Shown here in pieces: positions 1,640-14,510 of a stretch of DNA of 14,625 bases; positions within the stretch are counted from its first letter, which is position 1; every line of letters starts with the position of its first letter. Made by a program: the position numbers and the translations under genes. The stretch is from Anthoceros angustus (Eukaryota > Plantae > Anthocerotophyta): the NCBI GenBank assembly GCA_010909165.1, contig VJWM01000412.1, forward strand, positions 1 through 14,625. Reading direction: 5' to 3'. The notes under the pieces were generated by a model. It had not been told where the DNA came from and ran no database searches. It saw nothing but the letters and a program-made list of their open reading frames with translations.

Positions 1640-1727
1640 TGATGAAATAGGTCTAGCTTAGGGCACTATTCATTAGGGCCTCATTACTTAAACATTAATT
1701 TAGAGCTAGGGCTTTAGGTAGTTAGTT

Positions 1728-1800
1728 AGTTACAACAACTTATAGTTGCAACAACTTATGGTTGCAACCACTTATGGAACAACATATTGTTGTAACCACC
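1728..1800 (+). promoter_or_regulatory. 16-bp tandem array (RGTTRCAACAACTTAT x4-5) in copia U3, candidate enhancer
   Basis: AGTTACAACAACTTAT 1728-1743, AGTTGCAACAACTTAT 1744-1759, GGTTGCAACCACTTAT 1760-1775, then degenerate copies. Repeated at 8990-9065. Lies immediately upstream of TATTTAAA. Confidence 0.75.
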
Positions 1801-1809
1801 CAACCACCC

Positions 1810-1817
1810 TATTTAAA
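1810..1817 (+). promoter_or_regulatory. Putative TATA box of the copia LTR (TATTTAAA)
   Basis: CCTATTTAAAAGG context. Also present at 9077-9084. Confidence 0.65.
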
Positions 1818-1890
1818 AGGCTTGTACTTTACTCATTAATCAATTCATTCCATTGTTTCTCTTCTATCTAAGAGCTATTGATTCTCATCA

Positions 1891-1901
1891 TGGTATCGAG
1901 C
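1891..1901 (+). other. Primer binding site, initiator tRNA-Met type
   Basis: TGGTATCGAGC directly after the LTR, equal to canonical TGGTATCAGAGC minus one A. Confidence 0.9.
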
Positions 1902-4057
1902 ATTTAGCTCTTTGTGCTTGAGCACCTGCTTCCTTATGCTCTAGGCAATTTACTCTCCAATGCTTTTGCGTTTGTAGTACTTCAAATGAAGATAATGCGT
2001 GGAGATTTCGCCTTAGACAATCATCGGTGACAGCACAATGATGCACACATTGTGCATCAATTTCTTCTCGCCTCCATGGATTCCTTTAATCCAGCGGACA
2101 AAATTTAGGAGGAAGATCAAGGCTTCAAAGAAGAAGAAACAACATCAAATCAAATCTTCTTACATTCGGAGGAGTTTGACCTCAATTCTCCTCAGTTGAT
2201 GTTTTAGAGGCACAAGTATGTTGTCTCATTGAAGCCCTTTTGTCTAAGTCGGAGATAGAGTACAAGATATCATTTATGCTCGTAAAGCTCTCCTTTCTAC
2301 ATTTAGCCTTTATCAATATAGTGCTAGAGTCGCCATCTCTAAGTACATAAAAATAAGGCTAGTATCTTCGCTCCTAATCCGGATCATCTGCGGCAATCTC
2401 TTGATTCCATTAGAGCGAGAACTTAGAATAAATCACTCGCTATCAATGAGAAATTGACTTACAATACACAACAAATCAATATTATCATAGACTTGTTGAC
2501 CGAGACCTTTCACAAGGTCTCTTCTCACTTGATTGTAAGTCTGCGATTCGATGATGCGAAATTCATAATTTGAAGAAATGTTGTGCTCGCGCCTCTTTCC
2601 GCAAAACAATGCAAGAAGGCGGCGTGTCAACCACGGCATAACCTGCATCATTAAAATTACTTGCAATGGTGGGGTCGGACGATCTCGACGTGGATATTGA
2701 TGACGGCGAGCAAAATTTTACAGCGCCCAAAAGAGATGGCGAAGAACAACAATCTATATGGCGAGATGAATGGGAGCAATTTAAAAGGAAGAAAAGGAGA
2801 AAGCTAAAAGCGTAATGAATCCAAGCCTCAAGTGATTCAAGGTGACAACTTTAAAGACAAAGATAGATTCAACGGCAAGTGCGGCGTATGGCAACACCGT
2901 GCCCAAGGTGTCTATGACGCGACTTATGGAATATTGTCAGCGATGCGGAAGAATGTTCCACTTGGGACTCGATGCTATAGATGAATGGGAAGCCAAAGAT
3001 CGGAGGCAGACGTTTTAATGAACGGACTTACAAGCGATGGTACTCCAAGTTGCGCAAAACACCGCAAGATGTGGGAGAAGTTAGCTCACTTTATGCCTCC
3101 AAAGATGGAATGAGCTTATTGGCGCCACACGTCACTTATATACTATAAGGATGAAGGAGGCGATTCCTTACAACAACACTTGAGCAACTTCCGTATTGCA
3201 AGAATAATTTCAATGCATCCTCAAGAAAACTTACGGAGAAACAAACTTTTATTGCTCTCCTCGCCACTTGCCGCCCTCCTATAGGCCCTTTGTGACAACG
3301 CAAAATGCGGTCCTTAGAGCTGCACAAAAAGCAAGAAATTAACGGGCTCCACGGATATCGGCGTAAGTGAATTAATTGGAGCACTTATTGAGGAGGGCAA
3401 GCCGTCGAAATGAAAATCCCGATCAGGCCAGTAATGTATACGGGGCGGAGGAAGAGGGCGTGGCCGAGGCGGAAACTTCACTCCTAGACCGACTCCTACT
3501 CAAAATTTTCAAGGACCATCCACTTCTTCATTTAAACCTTCAAAGGGCATGAAGGCTGGAGTTACAGCAATTGGTGCAAGATGACCAACCATATGGAGAA
3601 GGATTGTTGGAAGAAGAAAAATGGTGAGCCAAAGAAGGAGGTCACCAGAGCACATGTTGCCGTTAAGAAGAAGCCCTCCACGGCAACTCCATCAAGATTT
3701 ATGCGCTTGGCAAGTTCCAAGCCATCAAACCAAAATTGGTATTTACAGTGGTGCAACATCTCATATATGTCACGATCTAACTCTTTTGAGTCGTATTCGC
3801 CATCAAAAGGACAACAAGCAGTGCTCTAGGCGGCGACCATAACCTCACCATATTTGGTGTAGGTTCCGTGGCATTAAAGTGCTCCACCGGCGGGTTCTTA
3901 CTCTCTCCCATGTCCTTTATGTACCCTCCATGTGCAAGAATCTAGTGTCACCGCTAGTTTATGTCAAGAACATAACATGCAAATTATCCTTGAAGCCGAT
4001 TTGTGTCTCCTTTACTATCATACTAATAAGTATCACAATCGCTCGGCACACTAGAAG

Positions 4058-4940
4058 ATGGACTCTATAAACTCTCGGTCAAGTGGGTCCGTTACACCTC
4101 ATCAATGTAGCCTCCCATTCCACTCTTCAAGCACCATGCTTTGGCACCGATTAGGTCATCCGAATAGCCAAAAGCTTATCCAAATGTCTAAGGAAACATA
4201 TAGAACTCCTGTTCCTAAACTTGAACCTCTCCCCTGGTGTGAAGCTTGCGTCATAACCAAACGTCATCAAGCTCCATTCCACAATCCATCCCCTCAGAGG
4301 GCTAGGGCACCCTTAGAGTTGGTTCACACAGACATTTGTGGTCCTATGTCTGCACCTTCATTTAGTGGTTGTAGATATTTTTTAACCTTCACTGATGATT
4401 ATTCCCGGTTCGTCCTCACCTACATCCTCCGCCATAAGAGTCAGGCCTTTTCTTTCTTCAAAGAATATATGATGTGGGCAGAGAGACTTACCGACGAAGC
4501 TTAAAACTCTTCGCTCCGATAATGGAGGAGAGTTCACTTCAAAAATTTGCTGAATTTTGCCCGAAGGTATAGCGCAACAACTTAGTGTGGTACACACCTC
4601 AAAGAAATGGCAGAAAACAAAATTTACGCCTCCGAGGAGATCACAGGTTTTGCTCACCCAAGCTACATTATCTAAAAGTTATTGGGTGAAGCTATATTGA
4701 CAACATATCTCCTTAATAGCCGACTTCCGCAGTCAAGGCATGACTCCATATGAAGCTTTTCTTGGGAAAACCTTCTATTGATCATTTACGAATCTTGGAT
4801 CCCCTTATGTGTTCATCCCCAAAGTACGCAAGAAGTGGATCCCAAGGCAGCAAATATACCTTTATTGGCTACAGAAGGCATTAAGGGTTACAAGTTATTT
4901 GACCCATCTACCCGAAAGCTCATTTATGCTAGGGCGTGAC
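4058..4940 (+). pseudogene. Copia GAG-pre-integrase and integrase core (rve) segment
   Basis: ORF 4058-4504 contains WHRLGH..CEAC (HHCC), HTDICGP and YFLTFTDDYSR. KTLRSDNGGEFTS follows after a frameshift. Confidence 0.93.
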
Positions 4941-5467
4941 CTTTCATGAATCTCATATTCTTTCTCCTATTATGGGGCATCCTCCCATTACTCCCGATGC
5001 TCCTTCCTCTGCGCATCCGAGCCTTCCACTTTGATGACGATGATTTTGTCATCATTCATTCACTCCCTCCGCAAGCTCCTATGGATGAACCTACATTGCG
5101 GGAGGAGGAGGAGAATATATTCCAAGACGACCAACTACTCCGGATCACGATTTAGAAGAACCTCAACATTTAGCGATGATGAAATCGACTATGATGTTGA
5201 AATTCGAGGAGGATCGTATTCCTTTTGAGGATGAGCCCGTCGGCGAGCAAGTGGATGAATTCGACGAGCGAGCAAACTGCGTTACTGCGCAGGAACTCAA
5301 CAAGTGGTCGACATTGAAGAACACATTCAACAACGCACCAAGGTACAATCTTAGGACTAGACCATTGCGGGACTGCTGGATGGAAGGAACCACCTTTGGG
5401 ATATCTTGTCGCATGACCCCATTTCTCCTCTCACACCTTATTATCAAAAAGCAAAGCCAGTTGATCC

Positions 5468-6971
5468 AGAGGAACCGCTAACCTTGAAACAAGCATTTTC
5501 CTCTCACGAAAGACACATGGAAGGTAGCGGTAGATTGATACAACTCTTTAGTAGAAAACTCCACATGGGAATTAGTTAAACCACCCAAAAGGGAGAAAAA
5601 TAGTGGGAAGTAAATGGGTCTTTAAAATCAAACGTAAGGGTGATGGTTCTATTGAGCGATATAAGGCAAGGTGGTAGCGAGGGTTTACCAGATCCGGGTT
5701 TAGATTACATACCTGGCTACCTATGCACAGCAAAGTTTGCCTCCTCGAATTATAATAGCCTTGTCCGCTCAACATGACTTACATCTTCACATGATGGACG
5801 TCAAAGCGCCTATCTGCATGGCGAAAGAAATATACATGAGACAACTCAAGGCTATGAAGTCAAAGGTAAAGAAGACCATGTATGCAGCTCATTAAAGGCA
5901 TTTATGGCCTTAAGCAATCGCAAGGAATGGAATAATGATATACATGACAAGCTTACAAAATATGGTTTTGTTCAAAGCAAAGCGGATGCTAGCATGTATA
6001 TCCCAAGACTAAACGATTACACAATTTACCTCTTACTATATGTGGATGACTTATTTTTAGCTTCATCTTCACTCTCCCATCTAGCTGAAATTAAAGCATG
6101 GTTGAGAAGTCATTATGAAAATGAGCGGACACAGGAGACCTTAGTTATGCCCTTGGCGTTAACATTATAAGAAATAGAGGTAATAAATCCATTTCCTTGG
6201 TTCAAACAAAATATATAAAAGAAAGCTTAAATAAGTTTGGACTAGAAGATGCTAAGCCGGCCCACACCATTTCCAAGTGGCACAAGGCTTACAGAGATAT
6301 GAGCCCTAAAAGCAGCGAGAAATGTCAGAATGTACCATACGGACATGCTTTGGCACCTTAATATATTTAAGTAACTTCACAAGACCCGATATATCTTTTG
6401 AAGTTAGTGCGATCTCACAATTTTTAGAGAATCACGGCGACAACATTGGCAATGTGTCAAGAGAATATTCAGGTATTTAAAAGGGACTATGCACACAGAT
6501 TGATGTATAAACATGTTCCGGCATATCTAAGTTACAATTAACGACTTATCTGACTATCTTGGAGATCCGATAGCCAAATGTCCGCTATGCATTACGCTAG
6601 GAGGTGCACCCATTTCATTTCAGTAAGAAACAACCAACCATTGCTTTGTCGATCAGTCGAGTATAGGGTCCTCACCTCGTCTCCAAGGATATAGTGGAGT
6701 AGGTTAGCATTGAGAGTTGAATTATCCCAAGATGGACCTACACCTCTCTACATGAGGGGCTATTGCCTTAGCTAGGAACCCTGCTTTCCACTCAACTAAA
6801 CATATAGCGATGAGTATCATTACATACGGAAATGTTAGAAAATAAAACAATAGATATCAATTATATACCAACTCAAACAACCCAGCTGACCTTTTAACCA
6901 AGTCATTAGGAAGAGATTTGCATTTAAAACACATGAAAATGTTAGGAGTACAAGAGGTTAAGCCTAGATAG
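5468..6971 (+). pseudogene. Copia reverse transcriptase (RVT_2 type) and RNase H segment
   Basis: EEPLTLKQA, KIVGSKWVFKIK, HMMDVK, GFVQSKAD, LLLYVDDL, TRPDISF, KRIFRYLKGT, TKHI, ADLLTKSL. Confidence 0.93.
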
Positions 6972-6986
6972 TGGGTATTTCCAATT

Positions 6987-8500
6987 TTACAATCCACAAA
7001 GTTTATCTAGCATGTTTATTTCCTCTTCTATTTCCAAGTAATCATCTGTACTCCTTCTCTTCTCTCTAATGCCCAAAAGGACCCTACAAAACACTCCATG
7101 GGTTACAGGAAGAAAAATGGTGTTGAGTTAGTCATTCGGAAGTTAGGTCACTTACTATACAAGTGCTTGGTGTGTCCTTCGTACTCTTCACATGGATATG
7201 CACCTAACCACATCATTTTTATCCCTTTTCTCACATACATATTCCATGGGGACTTCGTGGTCGTCCTTTCCTCCGGAAGCACCATGTGTTGCTCGCATAG
7301 GTTTCAGGTGGCAAATAGGAGTTTGGTATTTTCCTTTTTGTTTTGTTATAGGTTGTAGAGGTAGGGCAAACCTCACATGGCTTGTGCCTACCCTTTCTCC
7401 ACATCTGCAAAATAGATGTAGATTAGCTTATTATTAGCATAGGTTACATAGTTACTAGCCCCTAACTATAGGTTTTACACCTACTCACTTTTCTTTTCCC
7501 TAGCCCCTACTTCTCCTATGTAGCATATGCTCCACTTGGGCTGCCCTCACATACACTGGGGCCTCGTCTGTTTATGGAGTCCCACTCCTCCGACTCTTCT
7601 TCTATGTTGAAGTCGTCATGCCGGGACACTCAGGATACACTCCAGCCCTCTGGTTGGATTATCTACATCAACAATCATTAGTATTTTTATGCAATCAAAT
7701 TATTTATTGCAATTTATTTTGCATTTTGGCTTACGCCCCTCGACTTCTTTGATGACAACATCGGTTTTCCGGTGCTTGTATCACCAAGGCGTCATCCTCC
7801 ATCGGCCATTTCTCCACTGTTTACCTCGGCACATGCTTGCGAATTCACAAGAGAAATTAGGATCTTCCATATCATTTCCTATATTACGGCCGGGGCCCGA
7901 CATGGATCTCTTCACCCGTGCAAGTGCATCTCTATACCGACATACAGGCGCTTCAACTCAATTTTCCTTTCTCCGCGGCAAGTTTCTTCTTCTTCTATGC
8001 GGTTTGCTCTTTTCATTTTCTTATGGCCTCGTCCTTTGGAGCATGGGGGGCGGCTTTCCTCCACGAGGACCGCCACCACATTAGGTATATTATTCTTCAA
8101 ACATGCAAGAGATATGGAAAATGCAATGGAAAAATATGAGGAAAAATATGCAATGGCAAATGGACATGGAATCTCACCTATATCGCGTCATATTATAATC
8201 GAATAGTCTCATTACAACTGCAACATGGAGTTAATATCAGCAATCCATGCATTTTTCGAGAGGGCGCACCCACAAAACAGCGTCCCGCGAGGCGCCAATC
8301 ACCTCGGCAGCAGTTGCGATTGGCCAGCACAGTGCGGCGCGGAGCGCGCGGGCCGTAGCGGCGCAGGCCAGGCGGTGGCGGCAGCGCGGCGTGGCGCAGC
8401 GGCGCGAGCACGATGGGCGCGGCCGGCAGCTCGGTGTGCGCGAGCGCGATGCGGGAGGAGGAGAGCCGACAATGACGGCTATCCTCCGACACCCGCCTCG
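6987..8500 (-). CDS. Antisense multi-exon accessory gene inside the copia 3' region; putative transcription-factor-like protein (NF-YA A1-like and AP2/ERF-like segments); frames disrupted as given
   Basis: Five minus-strand GT..AG introns of 72-85 nt at 8218-8302, ~8095-8177, 7663-7734, 7405-7488 and 7084-7155. Exon peptides include DEAPVYVRAAQVEHMLHRR (7568-7512), YVCEKRDK (7241-7218), MMWLGAYPCEE (7216-7184) and STDDYLEIEEEINMLDKLCGL* (stop 6989-6987). The 5' end and start codon are uncertain. Confidence 0.7.
7084..7155 (-). other. Spliceosomal intron (72 nt)
   Basis: Donor GTAAGT, internal CTAAC, acceptor TTTTGTAG. Confidence 0.8.
7405..7488 (-). other. Spliceosomal intron (84 nt)
   Basis: Donor GTGAGT, branch-like CTAAT, acceptor TCTATTTTGCAG. 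Confidence 0.85.
7663..7734 (-). other. Spliceosomal intron (72 nt)
   Basis: Donor GTAAGC, very AT-rich body, branch-like CTAAT, acceptor TGTAG. Confidence 0.8.
8095..8177 (-). other. Probable spliceosomal intron (~76-83 nt)
   Basis: Donor AG|GTGAGA and U-rich body. The acceptor is ambiguous (TTTGAAG at 8095, or TCTTGCAtG near 8102 if a base is miscalled). Confidence 0.6.
8218..8302 (-). other. Probable spliceosomal intron (85 nt)
   Basis: Donor AG|GTGATT, branch-like CTGAT, acceptor TGTTGCAG. It leaves a 40-nt exon at 8178-8217. Confidence 0.65.
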
Positions 8501-8890
8501 TGCAGCGGCGGTGCGGAAGGCCTTAACGGCATCTGCGTGCCACCTCGTGGTGGGGGCCGGTTAGATAAGCCGTGGGCTTATCCATTAAAATGGCCGATTT
8601 ATTATAAGCCGTTATATTATGCATATTTTTATCTTTTATTAGGCCCTTTTTATTTATTTATTTTTATTTTTATTTAACCTATTTTTTATTTAGGCCTCTT
8701 TTAAGCCTATTTAGAGCTATTATTTTCAACCCGTGAATATTTTGGTGGACATATTAAGTTTTCTATTTCAGGCTTATTTATTCATCAAAAGCTTAAGTTA
8801 GCACTTTTCTTGCTTATAACTTTTGATTAAGTGGGAGTCTATCTATGATTTAGACCTCATTTTGAAGCTAGAATTCACCCCTACATTCAT

Positions 8891-8902
8891 AGTGAGTGGG
8901 AG
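8891..8902 (+). other. Polypurine tract of the copia element
   Basis: AGTGAGTGGGAG directly abuts the 3' LTR. Confidence 0.8.
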
Positions 8903-9156
8903 TGATGAAATAGGTCTAGCTTAGGGCACTATTCATTAGGGCCTCATTACTTAAACATTAATTTAGAGCTAGGGCTTTAGGTAGTTAGTTGTTACAACAA
9001 CTTATAGTTGCAACAACTTATGGTTGCAACTTCTATGGTTACAACAACATATTGTTGTAACCACCAACCACCAGCCTATTTAAAGGCTTGTACTTTACTC
9101 ATTAATCAATTCATTCCATTGTTTCTCTTCTATCTAAGAGCTATTGATTCTCATCA
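8903..9156 (+). repeat. Copia 3' LTR (254 bp)
   Basis: TGATGA..TCATCA. Differs from the 5' LTR almost only by small indels in the central repeat array. Confidence 0.97.
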
Positions 9157-9161
9157 AGACT
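9157..9161 (+). repeat. Right target-site duplication AGACT
   Basis: Matches 1635-1639. Confidence 0.95.
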
Positions 9162-10157
9162 CCACGGAGGTGTTATCTCATGTCAAACTCATAGCGGCCC
9201 AAGGAAGAACTTTCTTGGTGGAGGCCGACCCAGGCGTTGTGCCGTAAGGGCTCAGCATCCAGCCCGAGGTTAGAATAGGAGGAAGAGGATGAGAAGATGA
9301 GTAGAGGATTAGAAGTGTAGACGTTAGTGGAAGGCCACAGTGAGCCTAAGGGACGAATCCCAAATGCAAGTAAAAGGCGCTCCCACAGGTGGAAGAGTGG
9401 TCTTAGGCGGGGATGCGGTGTGGATCGGGGGTCACAGGCGCTGCGATAGGCTCCCTGCTAAGCGGGACACAATTGTGTTGTGTCGTTGTAGGTCGAGGAT
9501 TGGTGATTTTGGAGCGATGCAAGTGGTGCGTTGTAGAGGAGAGTAGAGGCGCCTTGCTTGTTTAGAAGGTGAGAGTTGTGTCTGCGGATAGCGATCGGTT
9601 GTCACAGACCTCGAACTTTCACACAAGTCTCATGGGACGAAACCCAACGTCTGAGCGATAGTGGGATAAGTGTGGCCGCTAGAGGGAGAATCTCGGGCGG
9701 GGTTAGAATAGGAGGAAGAGGATGAGAAGATGAGTAGAGGATTAGAAGTGTAGGCGTTAGTGGAAGGCCACAGGCGAGCCTAAGGCGAATCCCAAATGCA
9801 AGTAAAAGGCGCTCCACAGGTGGAAGAGTGGTCTTAAGTAGGGACGTGCGGTGTGGATCGGGGGTCCCCACAGGCGCCTGCGATAGGCTCCCTCTAAGGC
9901 GGGACACCTGGTGTGTTGTGTCGTTGTAGGTCGAGATTGGTGATTTTGGAGCGGTGCAAGTGGTATTTGTAAGAGGAGAGTAGAGCGCCTTGCTTGTTTA
10001 GAAGGTGAGGTTGTGTCTGCGGTGGCGATCGGTTGTCCAGACCTCGAACTTTCACACAAGTCTCATGGGACGAAACCCAACGTACGAAGCGATAGTGGGA
10101 TAAGTGTGGCCGCTAGAGTGGGAGAATCTCGGAAGCCGCGGGGTTTTCCCTACCACA
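9162..10157 (+). mobile_element. Right part (R/U5) of the gypsy-like 5' LTR
   Basis: 9162-9368 is homologous (inverted) to 12510-12755. Ends CCCTACCACA, followed by a TTTT spacer and a PBS. Confidence 0.85.
9268..10141 (+). repeat. Direct tandem duplication, ~433-441 bp x2 (9268-9700 and 9701-10141)
   Basis: Both copies start GGTTAGAATAGGAGGAAGAGG and end ..GGGAGAATCTCGG..GCGG. GGTT microhomology at the junctions. Confidence 0.95.
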
Positions 10158-10384: not shown

Positions 10385-12429
10385 ATGTGTGGTAGGGGAC
10401 GATTTCGAGGAGAGGAACACGGGAGATCATCCCCGCCCGCTACTGCAAGAGATTTGCGCGCTTCACGGAGGAATCGTCTGAGAGAAGAGATTGCTGCTGC
10501 CGTCCCTCGTCGACAACAGGAGGAAGACGCGCTGCGGGCAATCGAAGAGGAGGCCGGCTACGCGCGGCCAGCGGAGGAAAGAGCGGCGGAGAGCGGGAGG
10601 CGAAGGTAGGAGGGAGCTTCGCGGAGTGGAAGGAGGTTGTGGAGGAAGTGTTCGTGTCGAAGAAAGAAGAGGAGACATCCTCTCCCGAGCGCGACCCACA
10701 CTTTGCGATCGTCGCGGAGTTTCCACGCCGCTGGACCTTGCGAGACGGCGATTCCACATCCTCCGGCCAGCGACGGCAGTCGTGGATGGAAGTTCGGGCT
10801 GGTCGGAGGACTTGGCTGAACGCCTCGATCGCATCACTGCTTAGCTCGATCTTTTGGGACGGACCACAGGGGAGGTTGCTACTCCTCTGGCGGTTCAGGA
10901 TTTCAGCACCCAAAGATCCCGAACGGTTCTCTGGTCCACCGAGGGAAGAAGAAGCATAGGGGTAGCGGGAACGATCGAAACGAGCAACATGAGTGGAGCG
11001 GGGGGAGGGCATACGCTCCACGGTCAGCGATCGTCAAATTCGGCGAGAAAAAGAAGGGAGACGACGCGGAGGCATTCGTGAGAACTTTTGAGCACGTCTC
11101 CCACGCTAATTTGAAGGATGGAGTCGCCATTGCGCATCTTTCGGGACTGCGAGACACGCTGCGGTGGTATGGCGCACCTACAATGCGGTGGCGCCAGCGG
11201 TTGGGAAGCCCTCAAAGCGGCCTTCTTGAATCGGTTAGGTCTCGATTATGCACACCATACTTTGGCAAGGACCCTTAAGGAAGAAGCGAGAATCTCATTC
11301 GATTATGTGGAAAGGTTTTACGGGTATCTAGACGAGTTCGAAATGTGCAGAGGTGGGATCCACCCACCTCTAGGTACTCACAAACAAGCGCTAGATTGGT
11401 TCGTGGTGGCTTGTCTCGGAAAATGGAGGTACACTGCTGGGACGAGGCAGGAGCCCTCCGATTGGCTGAGGAATGGGAATCCGCCGAGTTAGGGAGGAGG
11501 AGGAAGAAGAGGCGAAGTCATAAGAAGAGGAAAGGGTCGAGGAGGTCGAGCTCCTCGTCTTCCTCTGCCTCCTCCAGCTCGTCGCCCTCATCCTCATCAG
11601 ACAATGAGGACAGCGGAACTCAAGAAAGTTCCACATCGGATGAAGAATCAGAGAAGGCCTACGAACGACGAATGAAGAAGGACCTGGAAAAGGTCAAAAG
11701 AAGGCAGGAAGAGGCGGAACGCGCGCTGGAGAAGGAGCGGAAAGGAAAGACGGTCCGTCGGATGGAGAAGGGAGAAACGTCCACAGCAGGAGGTGGAATT
11801 GCGGGCCAAGTGGAGGCTTTGACCAAGAGATTGACCAAATTAGAGGTCAAAGCTGTGAAAAATCAAGCTCCGCGGAGATCTCCCTCACCGGCGAGACAGT
11901 TGGCGTACTGCTCAATTTGTCATCAAACGGGGCATACCAACAGGGAATGTATTCGCGCACCACGACATGCGGTAAATCATGTGGATACCGTCATGCCAGG
12001 GGATTATTGGTATGTGGATGAAGCTTACCAGGTGCAAGCGGTCACTGGAAGTCGGCCACCTCAATCAATGAGGGCGACTTACCAACCTGCTACACCAGTT
12101 CCCTCGAGGTATGGATCGCGATCGACATCGCCAGGACCATGGAGACCGGATTCATCACAGAGGCCGATGGCGATTCCACAAGGATGCTGCTATAATTGCG
12201 GAGCACCAGGTCACTACTCAAACGAATGCCCAGAACCACGCAGCAAGTGGGTTATGTCCCTTTGTCAAGTCGCAAGGAATTGGGACATAAGATGGGGATC
12301 CGGTGCTCGGTGTGGCCTTGATAACACCGGCCGACGGTCGGGGTTCTGAGCCGGTGGTAGAGAGGCGACCCAACCGAGACGGCTGGATTCGTCGAAATCG
12401 TACTGCCCACCTTCAACACCGGCGTCGTG
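10385..12429 (+). pseudogene. Ty3/gypsy-like gag (capsid-like region, Ser-rich tract, coiled coil, CCHC knuckles), frameshifted and interrupted
   Basis: Peptides MCGRGRFRGEEH.., DDAEAFVRTFE, WEALKAAFLNR and SSSSSSASSSSS. Knuckles CSICHQTGHTNREC (11909-11950) and CYNCGAPGHYSNEC (12188-12229). Located downstream of the PBS. No pol is visible in the window, so the lineage is inferred from the PBS and long LTR. Confidence 0.85.
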
Positions 12430-14510
12430 GTCACGGTAGGGACCCCCTCTGGCCAAACTTCTCCACCCGTGATTTTGAGACCTTAGCCCGGCTTCCGGTC
12501 TCGGTTTGGTGCATTTGGGACCCTCCCTTAGGCTCGACTTGGGCCTTCTTCTTACTCCTAATCTCTACCTACTCCTCTACTCAACATTCAGCCACATTCT
12601 CCTCAACATACCTCAACTCAACTCCTCATCCTCCTAATCTAACCTTACTTCAAGCTCAGCCCTAGCTCGCCCTTACAGCTGGGCACAGTGCGCCTACAAG
12701 CCAACAAGTTCTTCCTTGGGCGGTTGCTATGAGTTTGCACAGACGAGAACCTCCGAGTCTTTCCTGTAGTCTACCCTCAAGCCGAGTTCCTTGGGCATCG
12801 CCACACACCCAAAGCAAAGCAATTTCGGCAACCATTCACAAGGAGCAACTGCGGGCGCCCGCAGCGAGCTCTCCGCCAAGCACTCCGACCACGCAAACTC
12901 CTCTCTACCGGACCTTTGCGTTAGCTTGCGGTACGAAATTCCTTCACAAGGAGCAAAGGACTCGCGGTTTGGGGCGCAAGACCGATTTTTACTTCACAAG
13001 CTCCCTCCTTTTGTAGGGAGGTCCTCACATCACCTCCCACAGCGCGCCCTCCACCGCCTCACTCCTTATTTTAGTGTATCCTACCGGACTTTAAGTTCGA
13101 CATCCAAGCATCTTGGGTGAAATTCTATTCTAGCAAATTCACCTATGTGAGCCTTAATGGCTCTGTCAACATTCCTATCTAGCTAGTCAACACACCCTCG
13201 GGTTGACAAGCATTAATACTGTCCTCCTCTAAAGAAAAGTCTCCCCAAGCAATGAGCCCACGCTCCAAGCTACCACCACCCTCTTCAATTACCTCTAGAT
13301 GCCGTCGCACCGCTGGTGATCCTACGGATGTAGGGCCACCCTCTACACCTCCTACGTGGTCACTTCTTATGGCCCTACCGCCTCCACGCTCTCCACAAGA
13401 AGGTCTCCCGTGGCGGATCTTGCTCCATGCCTTCCTCTTCCTCCTCGAGTCATCCTCTCGGCCTTCCATATACAGCCGGATGTGTTGGGCTCTTCCTTGC
13501 TCCTAGCAACCAACTTGCCCTTCTTAGGTGCAGGCGCTTTCACCATCTTGTACCTTCAAAATAAGCGCACAAACAAGACAAGCTTGGCACGCCCACATGC
13601 TCGTTTCCACCTAGTTGTCACCTCGGTGCCTACACACAATTGTGAGATTTCTTCACTCGCCACAAGATCCACCAAGAGAGCAACTTCAGCCCTTTTCCAC
13701 TTACTTCCTCTTCACTCCACGGTCCCACCTAGCTCAAACTTGATGTCCTCACAACATACACCTCCTTACCTTCAAATCCCTCACTTGCAAGGTCCTAGGC
13801 ACACACAAAATTCAGCGCCCTTGCCCTCTTCACGGTGCTTCAAATCCCTTCACACACAACTCCTTATGCACACCTCCTTCTCCTTGCACACACACGGCGT
13901 TCCCACCAAGTCCTTGCTCTAGCTTTCCGTGCATGCACAAGCTCTTCCTCGCGATTCCTCGACTTCCTAGGTGCCACTCCCTACACACTTGCATGGCCAC
14001 ACCCTACACTACCTACCCCACATATTTATGTGCTATTATTCCTAATATATCCTATTTATCCACAACCTTGCCTATACCCTCTTTAGCAACTTCCTAGGTT
14101 TGTACACCTTATCTATTGCTTCCCAAGTATCAAGTAAGCTTTCCAAGTATCCAAGTAGGGTTGCTTCCCGTATCCTTCCAAGTATCCAAGTAGGGTGTGC
14201 ACCCACTTGTGGAGACCTCACCCTCCTACGGTGGGAGACACTCTCATCTACCTATCTACCTACCTAACTAATGCGTAGGGAGTCCCTACCCTACATCCTA
14301 CCCATGTAGGGCCACCACGTCACCTACCTACGCATCTCATCCCTACTTGTTCCTCTTCCCTACTTGTTCCCTACCCGGTGGGGTACGCCCTGGACATGCG
14401 TGGACACGCACGCCCTACCCATCCCTCATATCCTACCCATGACATACATGGGGTGCCCCACCTATGTAGGGTCCCTACCCTACGTACCCTCTTGCACCCC
14501 TACTACCTCA
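12430..14510 (-). mobile_element. ~2.1-kb LTR (probably solo) of a related family inserted antisense into the gag
   Basis: Inverted homology to the left LTR core (12510-13180). Left end GGTAGGGACCCC mirrors GGGGTTTTCCCTACC and the right end is ..CTACCTCA. Coding-like sequence resumes at 14511. Flanks TCGTG/TCGTT are only an imperfect TSD and the left TG/CA end is not clean. Confidence 0.75.
14120..14505. repeat. Short repeats in the U3 of the antisense LTR
   Basis: TTCCAAGTATCCAAGTAGGGT at 14141-14161 and 14176-14196. CCCTACTTGTTCC twice (14341 and 14358). Many CCCTAC/GTAGGG motifs. Confidence 0.8.

Follow-up and report, generated by a model that had tools for sequence, protein, structure and literature searches.

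The window analyzed here, a stretch of 14,625 nucleotides, contains a complete, recently inserted Ty1/copia LTR retrotransposon (positions 1640-9156; 7,517 nt), and the gap between its pol stop (6971) and its polypurine tract (8891) is occupied by a minus-strand gene that we model with six exons. Comparison with contigs from other DNA runs revealed that the antisense coding sequence is linked to pol and conserved among copies in two organisms, referred to as A and B. We consider it very likely that a multi-copy family carries this gene as a fixed part and that the gene is real, selected and built in. An earlier note on this DNA had likewise argued for an integral accessory gene rather than a chance capture, a view supported by a pN/pS of about 0.19 in exon 5 and by the junction of the gene with pol in both organisms. 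On balance, we favor the interpretation that a young copia family holds a fixed antisense gene with five predicted introns that encodes a nuclear helper, which would promote expression of the element or protect it against silencing.

The host element was recognized by its architecture. Its 5' LTR (1640-1890; 251 nt) and 3' LTR (8903-9156; 254 nt), both with TG..CA ends, differ from each other by two mismatches and 11 gap columns, and they are bordered by a 5-bp target-site duplication, AGACT, at 1635-1639 and 9157-9161. The primer binding site, which we take to be of the initiator-Met tRNA type, directly follows the 5' LTR (1891-1901), and a purine run abutting the 3' LTR forms the polypurine tract (8891-8902). 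The gag-pol region extends on the plus strand from approximately 2500 to the stop codon TAG at 6969-6971 and is broken by missing-letter errors of the window. In a Pfam scan of 16 pieces, two of the three gag-pol pieces of at least 97 residues gave matches: gag_pre-integrs (E 1e-8) and rve (E 4e-4) at 4055-4501, and RVT_2 (E 1.5e-11) at 5778-6167. Integrase thus lies upstream of a reverse transcriptase of the RVT_2 type, which is the copia order. For RNase H, Pfam returned no match in the error-rich reading frames that close pol; the terminal motif there looks typical. With LTRs, target-site duplication, primer binding site, polypurine tract and domain order all found, the earlier description of a complete copia element holds. 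The nearest reverse transcriptase and integrase matches are just 28-46% identical to the element. CWG trinucleotides are depleted in gag-pol, with 53 observed against a shuffle mean of 118 and a minimum of 93 in 500 shuffles; this depletion points to CHG methylation and hence to a plant as the likely host.

The flanks of the element join up and match a related reverse repeat at about 12.7 kb, and the element therefore sits cleanly within another repeat. The reverse copy (12510-13160) is 74-88% alike to the flanking repeat (1228-1639, 9184-9212 and 9710-9800) and displays the empty insertion site. Within the repeat that hosts the copia insertion, two tandem copies of a 433-nt unit (9265-9704 and 9698-10145) are 90.6% identical. 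Farther along, gag-like frames with a zinc knuckle (10820-12349; PF00098, E 1e-5) show little CG or CWG depletion, with no pol recognized behind them within the window. A near-palindromic CCTACC..GGTAGG motif is repeated at least five times at 71-322. The LTRs of the element themselves contain, at 1713-1809 and 8975-9064, a 16-nt unit in tandem whose palindromic core reads GTTGCAAC; it is a candidate site for the binding of a regulator.

Read on the minus strand, the predicted gene lies downstream of an AT-rich region (8561-8890), a candidate for its promoter and leader. The predicted exon 1 (8303-8560) is 75% G+C, has a candidate ATG at 8532 and is covered over 8388-8561 in organism B. It is followed by the predicted intron 1 (8218-8302; 85 nt, donor AG/GTGATT), by a predicted 40-nt exon 2 (8178-8217), by the predicted, T-rich intron 2 (8095-8177; 83 nt, donor AG/GTGAGA), and by a predicted exon 3 (7735-8094) that organism B contigs cover in part. 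Intron 3 (7663-7734; 72 nt, donor GC/GTAAGC), also a prediction, is 24% G+C with stops in all three frames. Exon 4 (7489-7662), intron 4 (7405-7488; 84 nt, donor AA/GTGAGT), exon 5 (7156-7404) and intron 5 (7084-7155; 72 nt, phase 1, donor TA/GTAAGT) lead to the last exon (6987-7083), which ends with TAA at 6989-6987, leaving a spacer of 15 bp to the pol stop. All introns have GT..AG ends. The five minus-strand GT..AG intervals of uniform size described earlier are thus present, with lengths of 85, 83, 72, 84 and 72 nt from intron 1 to intron 5 and at the junctions then proposed, as are the donors GTAAGT, GTGAGT, GTAAGC and AG/GTGAGA (introns 5, 4, 3 and 2, respectively). Branch motifs had been described in four of the introns. 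We find branch-like motifs at most 45 nt from the acceptor in three of the five (introns 1, 3 and 4; in intron 4, CTAAT at 7437-7433) and none in intron 2, while the CTAAC of intron 5 is farther from its acceptor and varies between copies; in organism B, both it and the near branch motif of intron 4 are variable.

The exon lengths total approximately 383 codons in the window's letters and somewhat more in the true sequence. Exons 1-3 join in frame across introns 1 and 2 for 112 codons in the window's own letters, but each of the two introns is crossed by one frame without a stop and could instead be coding. We judge splicing as drawn to be very probable for introns 4 and 5, and the predicted introns 1-3 to be correct with a more modest likelihood. 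Exon 1 has retained CG and CWG (observed/expected 1.1-1.25) while the rest of the element is CWG-depleted, a pattern that fits either a 5' island escaping methylation or a recent gain.

How strong are the splice signals by themselves? Using plant splice tables, we scored the best intron chain against 1000 dinucleotide shuffles under three thresholds. The chain exceeded the shuffles at P 0.002-0.015 under two of these and at P 0.06-0.08 under the third, and the segment holding the gene ranked second (two thresholds) and seventh (third) among 66 equal segments on both strands. One stretch of the minus strand (12801-14421; 1.6 kb, 7-8 candidate introns) outscored the gene under all three thresholds; it is probably G/A/T-rich LTR-like sequence. 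Taken alone, the motifs are suggestive and moderately above chance. The introns might accordingly be read as chance motifs in non-coding spacer DNA, given the non-significant chain under one threshold and the higher-scoring stretch elsewhere in the window. We regard this as very improbable for the gene as a whole in view of the contrast between exons and introns, the agreement of frame and phase, and the conserved blocks that stop at splice signals. Motifs alone do not establish the gene; introns 4 and 5 were confirmed by the comparison of copies described below, which refutes the chance-motif reading for these two.

Contigs were compared over 6300-8900 from three DNA runs, X1 (organism A) and X2 and X3 (one sample of organism B); positions 8127-8387 lie outside the contigs of all runs, and 7779-8735 outside those of X1, which does not speak for absence. 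A run that may be of RNA yielded no contigs, and this likewise says nothing about expression. Counts from this comparison refer to the best 40 of 188 substitutions and the best 12 of 129 length differences. Contigs of organism A match the window with 0-3 other letters but many gaps. One X1 contig in pol differs from the window by two other letters and nine gaps over 248 nt, and one in the antisense gene by three other letters and 17 gaps over 300 nt; all of the 12 length differences listed are letters absent from the window. Near-zero substitutions combined with many missing letters indicate that the frameshifts in both pol and the antisense gene are mostly assembly errors, so that broken reading frames in the window are not to be read as decay. 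The frameshifted exons of the earlier note are accordingly present in the window's letters but mostly are not a feature of the family. By comparison with the short-read contigs, the window lacks many letters, up to about 1 in 18 against one contig, which gives it the look of an unpolished long-read assembly.

Contig depths in X1 are of the same order in pol (68 and 134) and in the gene (104, 137, 86 and 54), depth being no measure of copy number. Four joints (6939-7151, 6953-7065, 6958-7061 and 6958-7150; one from X1, the others from X2 and X3) are single contigs that match the end of pol and, beyond a diverged stretch, one of exons 5 and 6, and a further joint (8054-8816, X3) ties exon 3 to the region before the polypurine tract in organism B. 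The conserved blocks end at 7150-7151, the end of the intron-5 donor, and, in the joint 7437-7584, at the first base of the CTAAT of intron 4. In X3, contigs skip 7764-8848 and 8054-8816 (depths 4.3 and 15); these contigs may come from copies whose antisense gene is missing its 5' part or has other sequence in its place.

The comparison of X3 with 7040-7500, in which counts refer to the best 40 of 58 substitutions and the best 12 of 17 length differences, allowed us to ask how the individual parts of the gene evolve. The frame of exon 5 was established by reading unbroken stretches in the frame set by the acceptor phase and by the listed length differences, with codons at breaks skipped; seven of the 12 length differences were used, three being intronic and two alternative placements from a sister contig. 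This frame is free of stops over 77 codons, and the 24 of 25 listed changes that could be scored comprise 14 silent and 10 replacement changes; the resulting pN/pS of 0.186 has a P of 0.0012 under a base-matched null. Read in its other two frames, the exon has six and two stops, with pN/pS of 5.4 and 3.1. In the gap-free part of exon 5 (7156-7224), six of the seven listed sites fall at third positions of the sole open minus-strand frame and are silent there (P 0.007). Exon 4 gives a weaker signal, with six of 10 listed sites at third positions (P 0.08). In the contigs, the exon 5 length is divisible by three, which the phase-1 introns on either side require, and the length of exon 6 leads the frame to the TAA at 6989-6987.

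Intron 5 behaves differently. Its 11 listed variable sites are spread across all phases, its length changes are -2, +1 and -3, and it is more variable than the adjoining first and second codon positions (Fisher P 0.03, listed changes). Among the changes listed, none affects its GT or AG, its first 16 bases or its last 11 bases. Three predictions of the earlier note thereby find support: selection on the exons against replacement changes, introns that diverge faster than exons (variation in all phases of intron 5, mostly silent changes in exon 5), and conserved splice sites, the last for intron 5 and the best-ranked changes. The note had also placed the stop codon, TAA at 6989-6987, 15 bp from the pol stop; that codon is present in the window, but the exact stop is not kept in organism B, where it reads GAA and the TGG at 6983-6981, two codons on, reads TGA. 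Provided that no unlisted gap lies between, the protein end in organism B would be kept by a replacement stop 9 bp from the pol stop. These comparisons show that the minus strand evolves as protein code in exon 5 and at the end of the last exon, and not in intron 5. The GT..AG ends, the phase and the stop agree with the minus strand only. A plus-strand open frame (7011-7358), whose third positions coincide in part of exon 5 with those of the antisense frame, was considered and rejected, since it contains frame-breaking length changes in the intron-5 interval and listed changes among copies also create stops in it.

These data also bear on whether the gene could be a piece of a host gene that was captured once and is carried as a functionless passenger, its coding signal inherited from the host. 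LTR elements are known to transduce host sequence, as noted in a review of the field (PMC7264820), and a protein without a known family would be in keeping with such an origin. The changes that distinguish element copies are nevertheless biased to silent sites in exon 5, the stop is replaced two codons away in organism B, and the contigs that carry the variants have high depth and connect to pol, which argues against a single-copy host gene. We consider the passenger reading largely refuted and its remaining probability slight, and we return to the selected, built-in gene.

What does the antisense gene encode? Protein searches were run without a long in-frame query, and their sensitivity was lowered by the letter errors of the window. 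Pfam assigned no family to the antisense protein (three frames and ten pieces), and HMMER found no match among 1.84 billion proteins for one of the three frames, which holds most of the supported pieces. A word search with an exon-5 frame returned eight candidates, none of them a match, and an Atlas search gave best scores of 0.81 and 0.77, below the useful level. Locus scans yielded chance matches of 10-11 residues only (seven loci in metagenomes, nine in bacterial genomes and none in viral contigs), and PDB sequences gave no significant match. The gene product is likely a helper protein of no known family, and since no homolog was found, function can be discussed by analogy only.

The only recurring PDB match was to the AP2 protein WRI1 (PDB 7wq5), with a non-significant E 0.74 over 19 residues and E 1.2 for the whole frame. 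The query giving E 0.74 is formed by the 24 residues under selection with which exon 5 ends, and it aligns with the third strand and the start of the helix of the AP2 repeats of WRI1. A version of the match with E 0.006 was rejected because it includes residues that are out of frame by the copy data. AP2 itself had no Pfam match in the antisense frames, and we regard an AP2-like fold of the antisense protein as rather unlikely.

With respect to origin, it is conceivable that a DNA transposon gene, encoding a transposase or an accessory protein, entered the element downstream of pol in reverse orientation and was domesticated there, with its introns retained and its ends lost. The introns imply capture as DNA or in antisense, and antisense ORFs of Retand elements are recorded as bearing Transposase_28 (PMC6317226 Additional file 4; PMC11963269). 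Among 19 short inverted pairs listed, in contrast, none is convincing as terminal inverted repeats at the ends of the cargo, and neither Pfam nor HMMER detected a transposase or Transposase_28; Transposase_28 (PF04195) and the plant mobile domain (PF10536) were both without a Pfam match in the three frames and ten pieces, at the sensitivity that the letter errors allow. We give this origin perhaps one chance in five. As a claim about where the gene came from, it is compatible with a present role as a nuclear helper.

The model that we favor starts from two findings: the gene lies within the LTR-bounded unit, and other copies from both organisms have it linked to pol. Genomic RNA transcribed from the 5' LTR would read the introns as CT..AC, would leave them unspliced, and would be recopied by reverse transcriptase in every cycle. 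Because splicing is strand-specific, antisense introns stay in the genomic RNA, which fits the observation that the young copies all keep their introns. The earlier note had anticipated that antisense introns survive reverse transcription, and in agreement with this none of the 15 joints listed, of 18, removes an intron; no processed copies were seen among those. A separate antisense mRNA would start in the AT-rich region before the polypurine tract or in the 3' LTR, be spliced, and end within the RNase H coding region.

The 15-bp spacer dictates that the antisense 3' end overlaps the RNase H coding region of pol, and the 3' UTR placed there raises the possibility that it is the antisense RNA that is useful, by limiting the element via double-stranded RNA, and that the protein is incidental. 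Antisense RNAs of Ty1 and micropia, described in reviews (PMC12786077, PMC7264820), provide precedents. Selection at the level of codons is left unexplained by a function of RNA only, and we consider this alternative improbable.

According to the model of a nuclear helper, a protein of roughly 400 residues would instead act in trans in the nucleus, on the DNA or chromatin of the element. We suggest this role because Grande gene23 and Retand TRP28 offer an analogy and because the gene has a 5' island rich in CG and CWG in an otherwise CWG-depleted element; a nuclear regulator or anti-silencing factor has, in our estimate, a little less than an even chance. The main competing explanation accepts a selected gene and assigns its protein to the particle or integration stage, in RNA export, assembly or the tethering of integrase to chromatin, and not to transcription or silencing. 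The selection on exon 5 applies equally to such a role, for which retroviral accessory proteins and the integration-steering MBD of an arthropod copia family are precedents (PMC7264820, PMC6673714). Pfam detected no chromodomain, PHD, MBD or other reader family in any frame, however, and a separate antisense promoter would better suit a regulator made independently of the genomic RNA. A particle or integration role therefore seems to us possible but unlikely, and we retain the nuclear helper as the working model.

We may take this model one step further. Plant copia elements are thought to be compact. We speculate, with low confidence, that they include a hidden class of multi-intron antisense accessory genes, residing in copia lineages of little-studied plants, and that the member described here encodes an AP2-like, sequence-specific DNA-binding anti-silencing protein. 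If true, this protein would be the copia counterpart of transposon anti-silencing factors. The class would be invisible to ORF-based surveys, and the view that plant copia elements acquire no accessory genes would be an artefact of method.

An antisense third gene is present in the Chlamydomonas element REM1. In plants, antisense extra ORFs at the 3' side of pol are common in three Ty3/gypsy lineages, where they occur in 47% of Athila, 60% of Ogre and 86% of Retand elements (PMC6317226). In copia they are rare: the corresponding table, covering 5,376 elements, records them in 1% of SIRE elements and in none of 13 of the other 15 lineages, the rows for Bianca and Ikeros being ambiguous (PMC6317226 Additional file 5). 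To be counted there, an ORF had to be unspliced and at least 250 codons long (PMC6317226), a size that no exon of the present gene reaches, and the gene would consequently have been missed. Similarly, a screen for known domains saw none gained by copia elements of plants (PMC9289625). A 2025 review describes plant LTR elements as generally without introns, naming Ogre and EVADE as exceptions (PMC12786077), and a 2020 review calls for searches for antisense and spliced transcripts (PMC7264820). In the literature searched, mostly open-access papers, we found no plant copia family described as carrying an antisense gene with several introns.

The closest counterparts are the antisense ORFs of Ty3/gypsy elements termed aORF-3R or eORF-3'R, which include maize Grande gene23, rice RIRE2, Retand TRP28 and the plant-mobile-domain ORFs of Ogre. 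These share with the present gene their place, their orientation, their conservation across copies and an unclear function (PMC7264820, PMC11963269, PMC6317226). Grande gene23 is described as nuclear and transcribed from its own promoter (PMC7264820), and Retand TRP28 is predicted to bind DNA (PMC11963269). Unlike these, the present gene is carried by a Ty1/copia element, has five predicted introns and gave no match to Transposase_28 or another Pfam family. Like our gene, the env-like eORF-3'F of SIRE (Sirevirus) elements is carried by a copia element, in the interval that separates pol from the 3' LTR (PMC6317226). It is in the sense orientation (74% of elements, against 1% antisense), whereas the gene described here is antisense and predicted to be spliced, within a 7.5-kb element with 250-nt LTRs (PMC6317226 for SIRE). 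The brtn gene of Boty-like Botrytis elements (Zhao 2011, as cited in PMC7264820 and PMC8365987) is likewise described as antisense and as lying downstream of pol, ahead of the 3' LTR, but its carrier is a fungal Ty3/gypsy element. CopiaMBD of arthropods is comparable in being a copia family that has held on to a chromatin-related function acquired by capture; there, an MBD domain was captured and the account in PMC6673714, as far as it was available, describes no antisense or spliced gene, whereas our gene has no MBD match. An antisense extra gene of the kind known from Ty3/gypsy elements is thus found here in a copia element, with five predicted introns, intact and under selection by the comparison of copies. 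The case shows how intron-split antisense genes escape detection in surveys of unspliced ORFs or known domains and how spliceosomal introns can persist indefinitely in a retroelement, and it offers a live, testable case in which to ask what antisense extra ORFs do.
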